Assembly (NCBI GenBank): GCA_964347835.1
Contig: CAYFZR010000032.1
Coordinates: forward strand, 17,814-81,813
Reading direction: 5' to 3'
Length of the DNA stretch: 64,000 nt
Source: an uncultured archaeon
Lineage (GTDB): Archaea; CAYFZR01
Below are positions 12,253-57,320 of the stretch, piece after piece. Every line of letters begins with the position of its first letter. The first letter of the stretch is position 1. Position numbers and translations under genes: made by a program. The notes under the pieces are model-generated. The model searched no databases. It saw only the letters and a list, made by a program, of their open reading frames with translations, and was not told the DNA's origin.

Positions 12253-14103
12253 GTGAGTATAACGGTTTATAGTTTAAAAACATGTCCTTACTGTAGGCTG
12301 GTAGAGAGTTTTCTAGATGACCATGGTGTAGAATACGAGAGAATAATGGTTGACGAGTTGGGTGGAGAAGAGCAAAAAAAAGCAATAGCAGAGGCGTATC
12401 GATTAAGCGGTCAACGAAGTTTTCCCGTTATTCGCATAAACGAGAGGAGCATCATCGGCTTCGATGAAGCAAGAATGAGGAAGGCTTTAAATCTTAAGGC
12501 AAAGGACATTGTCCTTCCGAAATCGCCAGTTGTGGAAGAAAAGAAGAAAGATCTTCAGAAATACTATGATATCTTTAAAAAGCAGGCTGACAAAACAGGA
12601 TACCTCCTAAACCCCAATCGCGATTTTGTAGAGAGGATTTTGCTTGGCCTCATGGAAAATAAAGAGCGTTATGGCTATGCTACTTGTCCTTGTAGTTTGG
12701 CTAGCGGCAAAATAGAAGAGGACAAAGACTTAATCTGTCCATGCGCAAATAGAGATCTGCATCTCCAGAGATACGGTCGCTGCCTCTGCGGACTTTATAT
12801 AACGGAAGACTATAATCCTTATGATCCAACTAGCCCCTTGTGTATAGCAGAATATCATGAAGAAATGCTCGAACACGAGATTTCCACACCAACTTACGTT
12901 AAGGTATTTGGCTATTCTTTGAGAGGAGTAGATGAAGAAAGCATTAAAAATAACTTCGAAAAAGTCGCAAGTTTGTGTGAAATAAATTTAGAGGAGATAA
13001 AATGGAAAGAGAAGACTGCCTCCGTTTCTAAAACCTTCGAGGGTAAGTATCGATTAATTCTTAAAATGGATATTTCCAAGGATTTCTACAATTATCAAGT
13101 ATGGACGATTTCAATTAAAGAATCTCCGGCTGAAATCTTCAATTTAATCGATCATTTGGCCCCATTAGAATTACCTGATGTTCACAATCAACTCTTTGTG
13201 TTAGATATCCTATTGAACGAAGAGGAGTTTTTTTACGAAAATTTAGACTATTTTATGCCAAAAATCGATAAAGTGGGAAGTAAAATCTTAGATGGTATTC
13301 AGGTAATGAGCAGTGATCAGGAAAAAAGGATAGGGAGAGAAAGATACTTGGTTTCTCCCATGCAAGAGAGAATCGTAGACGATATAATAACAATAGAATC
13401 CAACTACCACCTACTCCATCTGGAGAAGCAAAAATACATTTTGATCTCTGATCGTCTAAGTCGAATTGAGGAAGAAACAGTATCGAAATTGGGATCTGTA
13501 AGCATTGGTCTGGCACAAGCAGACCATGATATTCTAAAAGATTGGATGCATGACATTAGCAATAGTTTTTCTGAAATAGCAGGCATTACTGAAGAAGTGA
13601 ACCACCATTTTCTCGATGCAACCTCCCACAGAAACATTTTAGAAACTATCTTCGTCGGTTGGAAAGAGCGCGAGGTAGATGCGTTACCATTAATATCGAC
13701 TTCCATTCTAAGTAAGGTTAAAGGCATCAAAGAAGACTACGAGACACTATATAATCGAATAGATGGTATACGTAAGGAAATGGAGGACATCATCAATATT
13801 TTACGAACTAAAATAGAGTTAATCCAACAAGAACAGAGTTTTGATCTTCAGAAAAGCATGCATGCTACTGCCAAGACGCAACTGGATTTACAAAAAGCAG
13901 TCAAAGGAGTGTATGTATTTTTGGTGGCATTTTATTTCACTGAACTTGCACTGATAATTTTCGAGGCAATGGAGGCAAGAGGAATAATTCATATAGATCC
14001 TTCCATTCCTGCTGCACTTTTCATTCCAGTAGCGATATTTTTAGGATGGATACTATCGGGAAAGGCAGAAGAAATGATTATGGGGAAAAGAAAACACTTA
14101 TAA
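12253..14103 (+). CDS. Fusion protein: glutaredoxin-like domain (CPYC) plus ferredoxin:thioredoxin-reductase-like catalytic domain (CPC..CPC..CLC) plus about 400-aa coiled-coil-rich domain ending in two TM helices
   Basis: SLKTCPYCRLV; GYATCPCSLASGKIEEDKDLICPCANRDLHLQRYGRCLCGLY; C-terminal GVYVFLVAFYFTELALIIF and IPAALFIPVAIFLGWILSG. Confidence 0.6.
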   Translation: MSITVYSLKTCPYCRLVESFLDDHGVEYERIMVDELGGEEQKKAIAEAYRLSGQRSFPVIRINERSIIGFDEARMRKALNLKAKDIVLPKSPVVEEKKKDLQKYYDIFKKQADKTGYLLNPNRDFVERILLGLMENKERYGYATCPCSLASGKIEEDKDLICPCANRDLHLQRYGRCLCGLYITEDYNPYDPTSPLCIAEYHEEMLEHEISTPTYVKVFGYSLRGVDEESIKNNFEKVASLCEINLEEIKWKEKTASVSKTFEGKYRLILKMDISKDFYNYQVWTISIKESPAEIFNLIDHLAPLELPDVHNQLFVLDILLNEEEFFYENLDYFMPKIDKVGSKILDGIQVMSSDQEKRIGRERYLVSPMQERIVDDIITIESNYHLLHLEKQKYILISDRLSRIEEETVSKLGSVSIGLAQADHDILKDWMHDISNSFSEIAGITEEVNHHFLDATSHRNILETIFVGWKEREVDALPLISTSILSKVKGIKEDYETLYNRIDGIRKEMEDIINILRTKIELIQQEQSFDLQKSMHATAKTQLDLQKAVKGVYVFLVAFYFTELALIIFEAMEARGIIHIDPSIPAALFIPVAIFLGWILSGKAEEMIMGKRKHL

Positions 14104-14363: not shown

Positions 14364-14371
14364 TTTGAGAA

Positions 14372-14444
14372 GGGGGTTTTACCTAATTTTATACTGAATT
14401 TATCTTATCCTACCCTATCACCCCCTTTCTAAACCCCCATATAT
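14372..14444 (+). repeat. Copy A of a roughly 72-nt G5/C5-bounded intergenic element (second copy at 57026..57097, about 89% identical)
   Basis: gggggttttacctaattttatactgaatttatcttatcctaccctatcaccccctttctaaacccccatata versus copy B. Confidence 0.7.
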
Positions 14445-53296: not shown

Positions 53297-53322
53297 CTTA
53301 GCATCTCCAACTGGAGAAAATA

Positions 53323-53413
53323 TGCCGGGGGCGGGTTTCGAACCCGCGACCTCCAGGTTTCCCAGGAGACTCTCCCTATGAGCCTGGCGCTCCGCCCCCT
53401 GAGCTACCCCGGC
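53323..53413 (-). tRNA. tRNA-Met or Ile2 (anticodon CAT) with an about 18-nt canonical intron at position 37/38; 91 nt
   Basis: Hand fold of reverse complement: GCCGGGG-TA-GCTC-AGGGGGCG-GAGC-G-CCAGG-CTCATA[GGGAGAGTCTCCTGGGAA]A-CCTGG-AGGTC-GCGGG-TTCGAAA-CCCGC-CCCCGGC-A. Confidence 0.75.
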
Positions 53414-53523
53414 TACCTCAATTTACGTTTACGAGACCGAAACATACCCATATATTTTGTGGTTATATATAAAATTAAAATATAAGGAAAGGAGATATTT
53501 TAGACCTTGGGAGAGGGTGAATT

Positions 53524-54006
53524 TTGAGGTACAAATTGATCTTTCTAATTTTAATAATCTTGGTCGGTAGCTCATTATGCCTTGGTCAAAAGAAAGAGTT
53601 TAAAATAGGAGATATTGTTGAGTTTGGCGATTATAAAATCGTTGTTCATTCTTTAAAAAAGGTTGACACCGTTTATGTTAAGGCAATGGGAGATGAACGA
53701 ATACAGGAAAACGCCAGCAAAGGCACTAAATACATTCTTGTCAACGTAACTCTTAAGAAATATACCTATGAAAACCCTGATAAATCCTTGCGCTTCGAAC
53801 TAAAGGATGCAAACGGAAAAATTTTAATGGAAAAAGGATCGTTCAAAAAACGTTATGTGGGACACTTAGATTTTCAAAATATGGACCCTTACAGCGAGAA
53901 ATCGGGATTTCTGATTTTTCTCGCTGAAGAAGATATAATAGTTAAAGAGTTAGAATGCTGGAAAAAAGGAACCGAGAATCCTGATGTTGTAATAAGTTTA
54001 AGATGA
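53524..54006 (+). CDS. secreted hypothetical protein (signal peptide; DUF4352-like beta-rich)
   Basis: MRYKLIFLILIILVGSSLCLG signal; host-like AT-rich codon usage. Confidence 0.4.
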   Translation: MRYKLIFLILIILVGSSLCLGQKKEFKIGDIVEFGDYKIVVHSLKKVDTVYVKAMGDERIQENASKGTKYILVNVTLKKYTYENPDKSLRFELKDANGKILMEKGSFKKRYVGHLDFQNMDPYSEKSGFLIFLAEEDIIVKELECWKKGTENPDVVISLR

Positions 54007-54126
54007 AAAAATTGAGTCAGGAAAATTAAGTGCAATTGCAATTTGTTTACAAGCATAATTAAAAAAAGATAAGGGAGATTTCTCTCCCCACTTTCAAGAG
54101 ACCCCTATTTCGAAGAATGCCTCGCT

Positions 54127-56436
54127 TCACTGAATGATAAAGGTGGTCGTCACTATACTGGCACTTACATTGAAATTGTAGCCGTCTTTGATGACGTCTA
54201 TCACATTGGCTTTGTATGTTCCCGCTGCTTGAGTTCTCGAGGTCTTCCACTGCATTACCGCATCGCCGTTGGTATCACTGAACCCCTGAAGAGATTTCAC
54301 CACTAAACCGTTGGGATCGGAGATATCTAGGAACACCTGTGCACCGGAGATGGGCACTCGAACTGTATCTACTTCTTCTACGGTGTGGGCCACGATTCCT
54401 ACTGTATCACGCGCCCTGAATGTATCTGTCTGGGTCACCAGATTTCCTCTCTTATCGACTGACCAGGTGGTCAGACTGTCTACGAAGAGATCTGGCATCG
54501 GTGGTGTAACCTTCTTTCCCCATTCTGTGGATGTCATCACGTATGGTTCTGCCATGCCTGTATTCATCCACGCATCCAGCAGGTTTATACCTTCCTCAGC
54601 TAGGAATGGATTCTGACCGTTGTTGCCTAGATAGAGGAACTGTATGTACTCCCAGCTCGTTGGCTGGTAGAGAAGGTCAATAGTCGCGTACACGGCGTGA
54701 GTTGGTGGATTCAGCGTGAACTCGTCCCAGTAGTTATATTTACCGCCTGCTACAGGGTTTCCGTATTGATCCGCTGGCACAGGGAGTGCGTTTCGAATCT
54801 TTGCTTCGTCGAAGCTCATCTCGTAGGGCGGAATGCGGTTGTCCTTGGCAACTTTGTTGTTCAGGACGAAATGGAAGGACTCGTGGTAGGTTCCGGGTGC
54901 CTGAGCCGATAGATTTCCAAGCGTATAGTCCACCGCACCAGTAATGCGGTCGTAGCTCAACGGAAGGTCTGAGCTATATCCAAATCCTATGAGCTGGTTA
55001 GCCCATTCTTGCGTCATGGCATAGTGGGCCTCATATATCTTGGTGTTTGGGTCATTAAGGTCCAAAATGGTTTTTACTTGTGTCGGCGTGCCGCCGATGT
55101 TTACTGTTATATTGCCGTATTTTCCGTCTTCACGCAGGAGTTCTCCGTCACTATCATACCACTTGATACTAAGCCACATCCTGCGTCCTTCTGGATAGCC
55201 AGAGATAAGCTTGTGCCCGGCATGATTGACAACTTTTAGAATGTTACCGCTTAACGAGAGCGTGGCTGCCTCACTTAGCTGCTTCATGGCCCTAGTCTTG
55301 CCGTCATTTAGCGCTGCAATCTGGGTCGAACTGAGATCGCCGCCGATTCTTAGCTTGCCTTGGGCATCTAGATACTGTATTGCGTCTGGCATCCAGTAGT
55401 TGCCACCAGTCATGTCGTGTAGCGGCAAGTCCTTTCTGATCTTCGGGTTCTTGTTGCAGCCCTGGCCGTTCACGGGGCGAAGGTGGCAGGTCTGGCATGT
55501 GTAGTACCTTGGTGTATTGTCCTCGTAATTTCCGCCTGTTCCGGCTAAGATGGCGCTCTCATAACCGGCCTTGAGAGCCCCGTCCTGGAGGTCAACGGGA
55601 AGATTCATGTAATCAGAGACCAGCACAGTGTCCAACATGCTTGCCTTCCACTCACTGTATGTTCTCTCCACAATCCCATACTGATAGGGGAAGTTGTTAA
55701 AGGCCGCCTTTCCTTCTACTGGCGAACCGAGCGTCCCGTTGTATGTTCCAGGCTCAAGCGGTACCTGGGCTCCGTTGTTATGTGCTAAATCACCTACTGC
55801 TGGGTTTGAGACGTCATGGCAAGTTCCGCAGAGATCACCTGAGCGGTAGAACTTGGACTGCAAGAACTGATGCCTGGCTTCTGCGTCGATATATGGTCCC
55901 AGCTTATCAGAGCCATCCCAGAGAACGTACATTCCGCTTCCATAGTATCCGACTAAGTTACCGTCGCTTATATTGTAGGCTATAAACGGTGGATTCTGAA
56001 CACCAATGTGTTCTGATTGGTCAGGATTGGTCAACTTATGGCATAAGTCGCATTCGACGCCGTCTCCATCACTTGGTCTCAATGCTGATCCATCAGTCGG
56101 TGTAGAACGTCCTTCCACCCATCCGGTCACGCTGTGGCAGCGGATGCAAAGATCTCCAGCTCCATCAAAGTCCTGTTCGGCTATAGCCAAAGTCGCCCAG
56201 AATATCGGATCGCGTCCGGCGTTTGCCATCATGCTTCCCCGCCAGTTGTGAGCAGGTTCCACTGTAATGTCATATCCACCGTGGCAGTTGTCGCATTTGT
56301 CGACTGACTCTATATTCCCTACTTCTCCTGGCTGTGTGCCTGGCATCTTGATTTCGTTGGGCACAATATCAGCTGCAAATGCAACAAAACCAACCAAAAG
56401 CATTAAAATCGTTGCTAAAAAAATCCTCTTTTTCAT
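54127..56436 (-). CDS. Multiheme c-type cytochrome (5 CxxCH) with N-terminal signal/TM and about 450-aa heme-free beta-rich C-terminal domain; atypically GC-rich gene
   Basis: CDNCH, CIRCH, CDLCH, CGTCH, CQTCH; N-terminus MKKRIFLATILMLLVGFVAFA; local GC about 50-55% versus about 35% flanks. Confidence 0.8.
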   Translation of the reverse strand: MKKRIFLATILMLLVGFVAFAADIVPNEIKMPGTQPGEVGNIESVDKCDNCHGGYDITVEPAHNWRGSMMANAGRDPIFWATLAIAEQDFDGAGDLCIRCHSVTGWVEGRSTPTDGSALRPSDGDGVECDLCHKLTNPDQSEHIGVQNPPFIAYNISDGNLVGYYGSGMYVLWDGSDKLGPYIDAEARHQFLQSKFYRSGDLCGTCHDVSNPAVGDLAHNNGAQVPLEPGTYNGTLGSPVEGKAAFNNFPYQYGIVERTYSEWKASMLDTVLVSDYMNLPVDLQDGALKAGYESAILAGTGGNYEDNTPRYYTCQTCHLRPVNGQGCNKNPKIRKDLPLHDMTGGNYWMPDAIQYLDAQGKLRIGGDLSSTQIAALNDGKTRAMKQLSEAATLSLSGNILKVVNHAGHKLISGYPEGRRMWLSIKWYDSDGELLREDGKYGNITVNIGGTPTQVKTILDLNDPNTKIYEAHYAMTQEWANQLIGFGYSSDLPLSYDRITGAVDYTLGNLSAQAPGTYHESFHFVLNNKVAKDNRIPPYEMSFDEAKIRNALPVPADQYGNPVAGGKYNYWDEFTLNPPTHAVYATIDLLYQPTSWEYIQFLYLGNNGQNPFLAEEGINLLDAWMNTGMAEPYVMTSTEWGKKVTPPMPDLFVDSLTTWSVDKRGNLVTQTDTFRARDTVGIVAHTVEEVDTVRVPISGAQVFLDISDPNGLVVKSLQGFSDTNGDAVMQWKTSRTQAAGTYKANVIDVIKDGYNFNVSASIVTTTFIIQ

Positions 56437-56490
56437 TCTTTCACCTCCCCAATTTTTTTCTGTCCCCCCCTCTCCTGAGGACGATTCAAT

Positions 56491-56820
56491 CTACTTGAGT
56501 AAATCATAAAGGCTTTTGTAGCCTTTCAAACCGAGTTGGATCATTCCTTTCTTCGGCTCGATGGTGACGTTACCTTCATCATATTCCATCTTGATCGATT
56601 CGATTGGATTATCAGAATTTTTAATATTCGAAAAGGCTGACTCTGTCATGGAAATATTGATGTCTGGATCGCTCGCTTCTCCTTTATGCGTTGCGATTTC
56701 ACCTTTCGTTTTTCTTATTTCTAAAGGCTCACCGTCAACGATCACTTGAACTACGGCGCCGTCTTTGAGCCTATGAAAGCCCAAACTATTTGCCAGATTA
56801 TTTACCTCTTGTTCTATCAT
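56491..56820 (-). CDS. small protein with SCP2-like sterol-carrier fold (hypothetical)
   Basis: Pattern ...VIVDGEPLEIRKTKGE...DPDINISMTESAFSNI...IEPKKGMIQLGLKGY resembles SCP2; co-oriented upstream of the cytochrome. Confidence 0.35.
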   Translation of the reverse strand: MIEQEVNNLANSLGFHRLKDGAVVQVIVDGEPLEIRKTKGEIATHKGEASDPDINISMTESAFSNIKNSDNPIESIKMEYDEGNVTIEPKKGMIQLGLKGYKSLYDLLK

Positions 56821-56913
56821 CTATTTCAATGGGAAATATAATGTAATATATAAATTTAACCTATTTTCTCCCGATAAGTGAGTAATATGTAGAAGAAGGT
56901 TTTAATACATTTT

Positions 56914-56959
56914 ATATCTTAATTATATTATTCTACATATCTTAATTATATTATTCTAC
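56914..56959 (+). repeat. Perfect tandem duplication of a 23-bp AT-rich unit atatcttaattatattattctac
   Basis: Two exact, adjacent copies; about 95-140 bp upstream of the minus-strand SCP2-like gene. Confidence 0.8.
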
Positions 56960-57025
56960 CTTACGCACCAAAATCATAGATTTTTGACGCGCTAATAATC
57001 GAAGATTATTGTGCATCGTCCAGAA

Positions 57026-57097
57026 GGGGGTTTTACTTAATCTTATACTGAAATTATCCTATCTTACCTTATCACCCCCTCTCTACACCCCCATATA
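57026..57097 (+). repeat. Copy B of the 72-nt G5/C5-bounded intergenic element (copy A at 14372..14444)
   Basis: gggggttttacttaatcttatactgaaattatcctatcttaccttatcaccccctctctacacccccatata; followed by perfect palindrome gggggtaattaccccc at 57101..57116. Confidence 0.7.
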
Positions 57098-57320
57098 AAG
57101 AAGGGGGTAATTACCCCCTTTCTAATCCCCCACATAATATTTAGAGTAGAAAGCAAATTTAGAGTAGATAACGACTTATTCGGTACCGTTAATAAAATAA
57201 TTTTCTTTTGATCGAACTTTTCTTAAAAGTTCGTTGCGGATTGCCGTTTTTTTGATAAAACTTTTTTCTAAAAAGTTTTGATGGAACGAGCCACGTTCCA
57301 AAGCGAGCCACGCTGCATTT

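Follow-up and report, generated by a model that had tools for sequence, protein, structure and literature searches.

Probable recent acquisition of a single gene for a secreted pentaheme cytochrome by a low-GC member of Candidatus Hydrothermarchaeota

Five c-type hemes held in an N-terminal cap that is followed by a beta-sandwich make up cytochrome c552 of Thermochromatium tepidum (PDB 5ZE8), whose physiological function is not established (PMC11976967). Together with ExtKL of Geobacter and cytochromes of cable bacteria, c552 has been placed in a proposed pentaheme (PHC) family, whose members are divided into "small" and "large" forms (PMC11976967). ExtKL of Geobacter sulfurreducens (GSU2937-2936, an "sPHC") is the polysulfide reductase MccSep, in which the active site is formed by a Cys-ligated heme 2 and a selenocysteine from the Ig-like (immunoglobulin-like) domain (10.1101/2025.11.18.688581). 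Among archaea, Methanosarcina acetivorans has MA3739, the only five-heme cytochrome listed for that species, which is up-regulated in respiration with anthraquinone-2,6-disulfonate (AQDS; PMC6703419); a deletion mutant formed methane from Fe(0) as before (PMC10989991). In this study, a gene encoding a 769-residue secreted pentaheme c-type cytochrome was analysed in a stretch of 64,000 nucleotides of archaeal DNA (hereafter the window; assembly GCA_964347835.1, contig CAYFZR010000032.1, positions 17,814 to 81,813). The gene was probably acquired recently and on its own by a host of low guanine-plus-cytosine (GC) content.

The host is an uncultured deep-sea archaeon of Candidatus Hydrothermarchaeota. 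The window carries archaeal translation genes, namely those for aIF5B, aIF2-gamma, an archaeal-type leucyl-tRNA synthetase and an archaeal-type alanyl-tRNA synthetase (AlaRS). The latter is 87% identical to an NCBI protein named "Candidatus Hydrothermarchaeota archaeon", and the next-best matches, at about 51%, come from outside this phylum (Thermococcus and Methanobacterium). Published genomes of Hydrothermarchaeota range from 39% to 51% GC and have been described as carboxydotrophic with the Wood-Ljungdahl pathway, capable of sulfate or nitrate reduction and equipped with "many different c-type cytochromes" (PMC6775978). Kato et al. found multiheme cytochromes in all subgroups of the phylum; the low-GC subgroup-A genome BMS3Bbin15 has two 5-CxxCH cytochromes (Table S2) and ccmB/ccmC listed in the supplementary gene table, and its sister genome IPdc08 has none of these cytochromes or ccm genes (PMC6759336). 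A first-pass annotation of this DNA had placed the cytochrome in a fermentative-looking chromosome and stressed the rarity of multiheme cytochromes; neither framing holds for a phylum with published respiratory pathways, multiheme cytochromes and ccmB/ccmC genes (PMC6775978, PMC6759336). Multiheme cytochromes in Hydrothermarchaeota and the transfer of cytochromes into archaea are already known. The present analysis contributes one clearly resolved acquisition of a single gene and places this gene in a very large, unannotated family that spans two domains of life.

Composition and insertion site of the cytochrome gene

The cytochrome gene is the sole open reading frame (ORF) in the window with more than one CxxCH heme-binding motif. 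The features on which its analysis depends are as follows.

54127-56436, minus strand: foreign gene for the 769-residue secreted pentaheme c-type cytochrome
56441-56448, minus strand: Shine-Dalgarno-like sequence GGAGGTGA, located 4 nt 5' of the cytochrome ATG, read from the sequence
54072-54089, minus strand: hairpin GGGGAGAGAAATCTCCCT followed by a T-run, found by pattern scan and sequence (consensus match only)
53441-56490, no strand: insert of about 3.05 kb, lineage-specific relative to a sister species (blastn and pairwise alignments of contigs L084, L085 and L086)
53323-53413, minus strand: native tRNA(CAU) gene with an intron (Rfam RF00005, 56.6 bits), 96% conserved in the sister species
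53524-54006, plus strand: DUF4352 (Ig-like) gene, 160 residues, secreted (Pfam PF11611, E = 4.4e-6, 27.4 bits with a cut-off of 25.9)
56491-56820, minus strand: small native gene of 109 residues; positions 254-561 of L084 match window positions 56503-56810 at 74%

The GC content of the cytochrome gene is 50.1% (54.7% at third codon positions, GC3), against 37.4% (33%) for the rest of the window. In 200-bp windows it rises from 0.37 to 0.47-0.58 exactly across about 54100-56400, so that the step coincides with the ends of the ORF. Among 59 window ORFs, whose GC3 averages 0.332 (standard deviation 0.034), the cytochrome gene stands at z = +6.4, and its codon-adaptation index, calculated with the window genes as reference, at z = -4.8. 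When the protein was recoded with host codon preferences, a GC content of 42.3% and a GC3 of 34.6% were expected, indicating that about 5 of the 13 excess GC points stem from amino-acid composition and about 8 from synonymous choice; the synonymous codon choice itself deviates from that of the host (chi-square 300, 41 degrees of freedom, p = 4e-41). With a gene-minus-flank difference of +14.4 points, the window copy also shows the largest GC excess among 76 family loci. The GC shift and the aberrant codon usage described in the first-pass annotation were both confirmed by these analyses, as was the host-like composition of the neighbouring secreted-protein gene: the DUF4352 gene, which lies inside the insert and encodes a signal peptide, has a GC content of 34% and a codon-adaptation z of -0.2. 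The small 109-residue gene has a GC content of 40.0%.

The corresponding site was found in a sister species with about 80% nucleotide identity to the window, represented by contigs L084-L086 from runs SRR29324583, SRR29324587 and SRR29324585. Run SRR29324585 also yielded contig L088, which carries the same AlaRS as L087, a contig of the named Hydrothermarchaeota genome. The intron-bearing tRNA is retained there (L084 88-216 matches window 53309-53438 at 96%), and in all three contigs it lies only about 37 bp from the small 109-residue gene. The syntenic site is therefore empty in the sister species, and the window holds a lineage-specific insert of about 3.05 kb at about 53441-56490. Two genes make up the unit that differs, one for the DUF4352 protein and one for the cytochrome. 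The small gene, described at first pass as SCP2-like and intermediate in GC content, is native, adjoins the tRNA in the sister species and falls outside the insert.

The same arrangement is present in an independent assembly, GCA_012974965.1, in which contig L001 is 99.6% identical to the window (32 mismatches over 10,220 bp) and both junctions are identical. A metagenomic source and an abrupt switch in composition might point to an assembly chimera or to contamination. Since L001 comes from a different assembly and has the same junctions, chimerism is excluded, and the explanation as a whole is extremely improbable; moreover, both flanks on the same contig are host-like and the switch points are gene ends.

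The relationships of the protein were examined over its family core (residues 25-640). In this region, homologues from Gemmatimonadota, Nitrospirota, TA06, Chloroflexota and Acidobacteriota, together with those on a few unlabelled contigs, form a flat set that shares 72-76% identity with it. By comparison, the AlaRS of the host is only about 51% identical to any protein from outside its phylum. In line with one of the outcomes anticipated in the first-pass annotation, the closest labelled relatives are bacterial: those from Gemmatimonadota, Nitrospirota, TA06 and Chloroflexota share 72-73% core identity, and the Methanosarcinales copies are more distant at 65-66%. The latter figure includes Methanosarcina sp. 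KYL-1 and other Methanosarcinaceae members, whose full-length identity is 60-61%. The nearest relative of all, P0004 on contig L003 (75% core identity), has flanks of 49% GC with TrmB, DUF835 and a KaiC-like ATPase, suggesting that L003 is probably archaeal. For both L003 and L002, another contig among the nearest relatives, this assignment comes from Pfam content only (S_layer_C, DUF835, TrmB and KaiC-like ATPase). No host genes shared with the window were detected in L002 or L003 by tblastx, and a metagenome scan with the neighbouring MutS-like protein found nothing.

Horizontal acquisition of the cytochrome gene is strongly supported, because three independent lines of evidence agree: composition and codon usage, the empty site in the sister species, and phylogenetic incongruence, the last from distance and neighbour-joining analysis only. 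The first-pass view of foreign DNA in an archaeal chromosome thus stands for this gene, with an empty counterpart site and identical junctions in a second assembly.

Domains, heme ligation and predicted fold

The N-terminus of the cytochrome, MKKRIFLATILMLLVGFVAFA followed by AD, is a signal peptide with an AxA-type cleavage site between AFA and AD, and the five CxxCH motifs lie at C48, C97, C129, C203 and C314, in agreement with the five motifs and N-terminal signal reported for this 769-residue ORF at first pass. The protein is divided into three parts.

55387-56364, minus strand: pentaheme domain, residues 25-350 (Pfam Cytochrome_C7, 29.6 bits with a cut-off of 24.8)
54505-55386, minus strand: conserved heme-free beta-sandwich/helical domain, residues 351-644 (alignments, model secondary structure and core extent in distant relatives)
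54130-54504, minus strand: optional macroglobulin-type (MG2-like) Ig domain, residues 645-769

The conserved core of the family extends over residues ~25-640, and the last 125 residues are optional. The C-terminal region, which the first-pass annotation had left wholly unassigned, can accordingly be resolved into a conserved core part (about 350-640), with the motifs GYPEGRRMW, KDNRIPP and YQPTSWEY and His522, and an MG2-like Ig domain (645-769), for which the MG2 and Ig-like Pfam matches are below threshold.

Conservation was assessed in 204 close relatives and in 38 distant representatives at about 40-60% identity. Each of the five CxxCH motifs is kept in at least 201 of the 204 aligned relatives, and the last four are invariant. 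Exactly five histidines outside these motifs (H189, H197, H340, H408 and H522) are conserved in both close and distant relatives. Because they persist alongside the five CxxCH motifs, they suggest that all five hemes would have bis-histidine (bis-His) ligation and may form an electron wire. M70 and M634 are likewise conserved in both sets. The only cysteine outside the motifs, C327, is conserved in 84% of relatives and replaced by Ala or Ser in 16%.

An AlphaFold2 model built from a 120-sequence alignment reached a pLDDT (predicted local distance difference test) of 83.4 and a pTM (predicted template-modelling score) of 0.80. It supersedes a first model from 23 sequences, in which the heme domain had a pLDDT below 50 and the fold matches were uninformative. 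The model shows a predicted fold like that of T. tepidum c552 (the ExtKL/MccSep "PHC" architecture), namely a five-heme cap followed by an Ig-like beta-sandwich that can be superimposed on 5ZE8. However, identity to c552 is only 14-20%, and searches of PDB sequences with a profile, with the single sequence and with the heme domain alone gave no cytochrome match at E <= 1. The window protein is also twice as long as c552: its heme domain is larger, and it has in addition about 290 residues of conserved heme-free domain as well as the MG2-like Ig domain.

The likeness to MccSep/ExtKL, taken from its published description, covers the pentaheme cap, the Ig-like stem, the periplasmic location and the relationship to c552 (10.1101/2025.11.18.688581; PMC11976967). 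In contrast to MccSep, the window protein lacks both the Cys ligand of heme 2 and the selenocysteine or cysteine of the Ig-like domain, and its gene contains no in-frame UGA. Among the matches of the fold search there was no MccSep/ExtKL entry. Chemistry of the MccSep type was rejected on these grounds, C327 being the only non-motif cysteine, with no second cysteine and no UGA read-through. The large PHCs (Gsu2801 and its cable-bacteria homologues; PMC11976967) were compared by description only; those of cable bacteria may carry truncated-hemoglobin domains, which are absent from the window protein. MA3739 was compared in the same manner and is, like Gsu2801, a candidate relative at most; the window copy is nearer to bacterial than to Methanosarcinales copies.

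MtrC/OmcA and OcwA resemble the window protein in function only, as secreted proteins with bis-His multiheme chains and beta-sandwich domains that contact extracellular substrates. They differ in heme number and fold, and no porin or partner genes lie near the window gene. Membership of the MtrC/OmcA decahemes was rejected, the MtrC/MtrF Pfam domain scoring 16.8 bits with a cut-off of 30 and the protein having five hemes, not ten. A nitrite reductase of the NrfA type was also rejected, with no CxxCK motif, no NrfA match in Pfam or NCBIfam and none among the top 50-60 fold matches.

Family of the cytochrome and its likely role

A word-indexed search found 5,267 homologues at E <= 1e-3, the best 120 of which are 62-72% identical to the window protein. 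An exhaustive search of representatives at 50% identity gave 2,063 clusters at E <= 1e-3, 487 of them reaching E <= 1e-30. An exact look-up of the window protein itself gave no record. The family is very large, stand-alone, strongly conserved, mostly bacterial and uncharacterised, with no NCBIfam model, curated annotation or solved member; its thousands of stand-alone genes come from numerous bacterial phyla as well as some archaea and keep an identity of 60-75% between them. Of 77 labelled sequences, only 32 are nearest to one from their own phylum. The flat identities, the high conservation and the GC excess in low-GC hosts indicate that the family is under strong constraint and frequently transferred.

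No conserved neighbour was found across 84 loci by two all-against-all ORF clusterings, which recovered only alternative-frame ORFs of the gene itself. Sporadic neighbours include response regulators and sensor kinases, with two-component regulators at the Methanosarcinales loci. A class I cytochrome c lies directly downstream in four gammaproteobacterial loci (L034, L042, L066 and L078), a weak possible link. Some distant members (among P0447, P0455, P0458, P0461, P0462, P0473 and P0491) carry about 230 additional N-terminal residues that include a sixth CxxCH, and other distant members reach 1,000-1,700 residues through C-terminal extensions.

The best explanation of the locus, which we regard as probable, is that a low-GC lineage of Hydrothermarchaeota recently acquired the single gene of a Sec-secreted pentaheme cytochrome, which would act as an extracytoplasmic electron-transfer protein or terminal oxidoreductase. 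The donor would be an unsampled organism with a GC content of about 50% or higher. The gene landed in the spacer between the tRNA(CAU) and the native small gene, downstream of the latter and in the same orientation. There it would be transcribed from the small gene's promoter, with its own strong ribosome-binding site and a terminator formed by the hairpin and T-run. After export through the Sec system, the host Ccm system would attach the five hemes, and the putative bis-His wire would let the cytochrome act outside the membrane toward an acceptor or donor that is either soluble or solid. Docking or substrate binding would fall to the conserved heme-free domain.

Several observations weigh against this explanation. 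Amino-acid composition accounts for about 5 of the 13 GC points, and the family gene is also richer in GC than its flanks in other low-GC hosts, at 47-52%. Identities within the family are too flat to point to a donor (68.7% within phyla and 65.8% between them), and the nearest relative is only 75% identical in the core. At the insert, neither an integrase nor flanking direct or inverted repeats beyond chance were found; no family member was found on viral contigs, and plasmids gave one remote hit of 24% only. There is no ccm gene within the 64 kb, where no protein with the tryptophan-rich (WWD) signature motif of CcmC/CcmF was found either. Residue 197 (codon 55846-55848), a candidate distal heme ligand, is His in 98% of the 204 relatives and Tyr solely in the copy of Hydrothermarchaeota, that of the window and L001. 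Finally, the heme-free domain is so highly conserved that an enzyme would account for it no less well than a simple electron carrier.

The two points on GC content would also suit an ancestral gene that was deleted in the sister species and whose high GC merely reflects its amino-acid composition, as would the host-like composition of the co-inserted DUF4352 gene and a comparison that covers one sister lineage. However, a GC3 of 54.7%, where host codons predict 34.6%, and a protein nearer to bacterial than to other archaeal copies make such an origin very unlikely.

The Tyr at position 197 in this copy alone and the lack of ccm genes in the window, together with unameliorated codon usage and absence of the gene from the sister species, could also mark a recent passenger that is unexpressed or unmatured, and hence non-functional, in its host. 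This is unlikely as well, although less so than ancestry: the 769 codons are intact and kept in two populations at 99.8% amino-acid identity, and the copy deviates at 9 of 281 highly conserved columns, which is in the normal range (family median, 6). Moreover, the gene has a strong ribosome-binding site and lies 54 bp behind a native gene, and ccm genes occur in related low-GC genomes of the phylum (PMC6759336).

The extreme conservation of the family makes a third alternative a serious one, namely that what the same transfer brought in is a multiheme enzyme that converts a small inorganic compound (a sulfur, nitrogen or metal species) instead of an electron carrier or MtrC-like reductase. Over a core of about 615 residues, which includes a heme-free domain with invariant motifs, members from different phyla, bacterial and archaeal alike, retain identities of 60-75%, and the gene stands alone, as do those of many periplasmic enzymes. 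The fold relative MccSep/ExtKL is a polysulfide reductase (10.1101/2025.11.18.688581), and c552 has been proposed to take part in sulfur metabolism (PMC11976967). The invariant M70 and M634 and a sixth conserved residue group could form an active site, and a multicopper oxidase lies upstream of the cytochrome in 5 of 84 loci from different phyla (L002, L015, L023, L056 and L058), a weak possible link. On the other hand, the Cys ligand and Sec/Cys pair of MccSep are absent, C327 being Ala or Ser in 16% of relatives. Neither CxxCK nor another known catalytic-heme signature is present, the five conserved non-motif histidines match five bis-His hemes, and no substrate-specific accessory genes are linked. 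An enzyme of this kind is possible, but it is not the reading that we favour.

More speculatively, and with a good deal of doubt, the family could represent an undescribed self-contained extracellular redox enzyme that spreads between bacteria and archaea, giving the host a new respiratory or detoxifying capacity, with the His197-to-Tyr change retuning one heme. If this were true, the lack of phylum structure and the high conservation would reflect frequent transfer between bacteria and archaea.

Under the favoured explanation of recent acquisition, the locus is a well-documented single-gene transfer into an uncultured archaeon, with an empty site in the sister species and junctions repeated in a second assembly. 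It shows that respiratory hardware can spread as one self-sufficient gene, and it fits published strain-level differences in the cytochrome content of Hydrothermarchaeota. With members in the cultivated Methanosarcina sp. KYL-1 and Shewanella atlantica, the family is a good target for biochemical and structural work.

Neighbouring features of the locus

In the Rfam alignment of the tRNA gene at 53323-53413, the anticodon reads CAU and an intron of 18 nt follows position 37; the ARAGORN call of tRNA Pro(agg) is a miscall. The intron and anticodon agree with the tRNA-Met(CAT) of the first-pass annotation, but Met is one of two candidate identities, as elongator Met and Ile2 (CAU, agmatidine-modified) are indistinguishable from the sequence alone. 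Similarly, the foreign DNA does adjoin a tRNA gene, as was claimed and as in tRNA-associated integrative elements, whereas the signs of a classical integrative island are missing. Such an island, targeted to the tRNA, was rejected: no integrase ORF or att repeats are present, and the insert, which comprises two genes only, adjoins the 5' end of the tRNA gene. The three sister contigs, from three runs, end within about 90 bp past the 3' end of the tRNA (L084 1-87, L086 1-87 and L085 1-11), and these ends do not match the DUF2064 gene of the window, so that in the sister population the region beyond this end of the tRNA may likewise vary or cause breaks in assembly.

The DUF4352 gene may have arrived with the cytochrome gene or may have been a resident that was lost in the sister species; both are compatible with the data. 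For the small 109-residue gene, the SCP2 similarity noted at first pass (E = 0.041, 14.7 bits) is below the Pfam gathering threshold of 21.3 bits, and a sterol-transfer (SCP2) assignment was rejected. NCBIfam gave no match for the cytochrome, the 109-residue gene or the DUF4352 gene. A gap of 54 bp separates the small gene's stop codon from the start of the co-oriented cytochrome gene, and this short distance makes co-transcription of the two likely. The hairpin and T-run, about 40 nt past the cytochrome stop codon, look like a terminator.

On the other side of the small gene, a second insert separates it from a gene for a coiled-coil protein of 109 residues:

56821-57320, no strand: AT-rich intergenic insert of about 0.5 kb, lineage-specific relative to sister contig L084

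In L084, the two flanking genes are 15 bp apart. The insert contains tandem 23-mers (56914-56959), tandem 18-mers (57139-57174), the palindrome AAGGGGGTAATTACCCCCTT (57101-57120) and one copy of a dispersed repeat of about 80 nt. A promoter within this segment probably now serves both the small gene and the cytochrome gene.

The intergenic repeat of about 80 nt (GAAGGGGGTTTTAC...CACCCCCT...ACCCCCATATA) has two copies in the window, at 14368-14443 and 57022-57097, which are 89% identical, and the sister genome, GCA_046760505.1, lacks the copy at 14.4 kb. Shuffled sequences fold about equally well (z = -0.4 to -0.6); a structured RNA was accordingly rejected, and a small mobile element resembling a MITE (miniature inverted-repeat transposable element) or a terminator-like element is more likely. 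Elsewhere in the window, positions 12253-14103 encode a 616-residue fusion of glutaredoxin, the catalytic subunit of ferredoxin-thioredoxin reductase and DUF3422, which is kept in the sister genome (L087 16695-18539).

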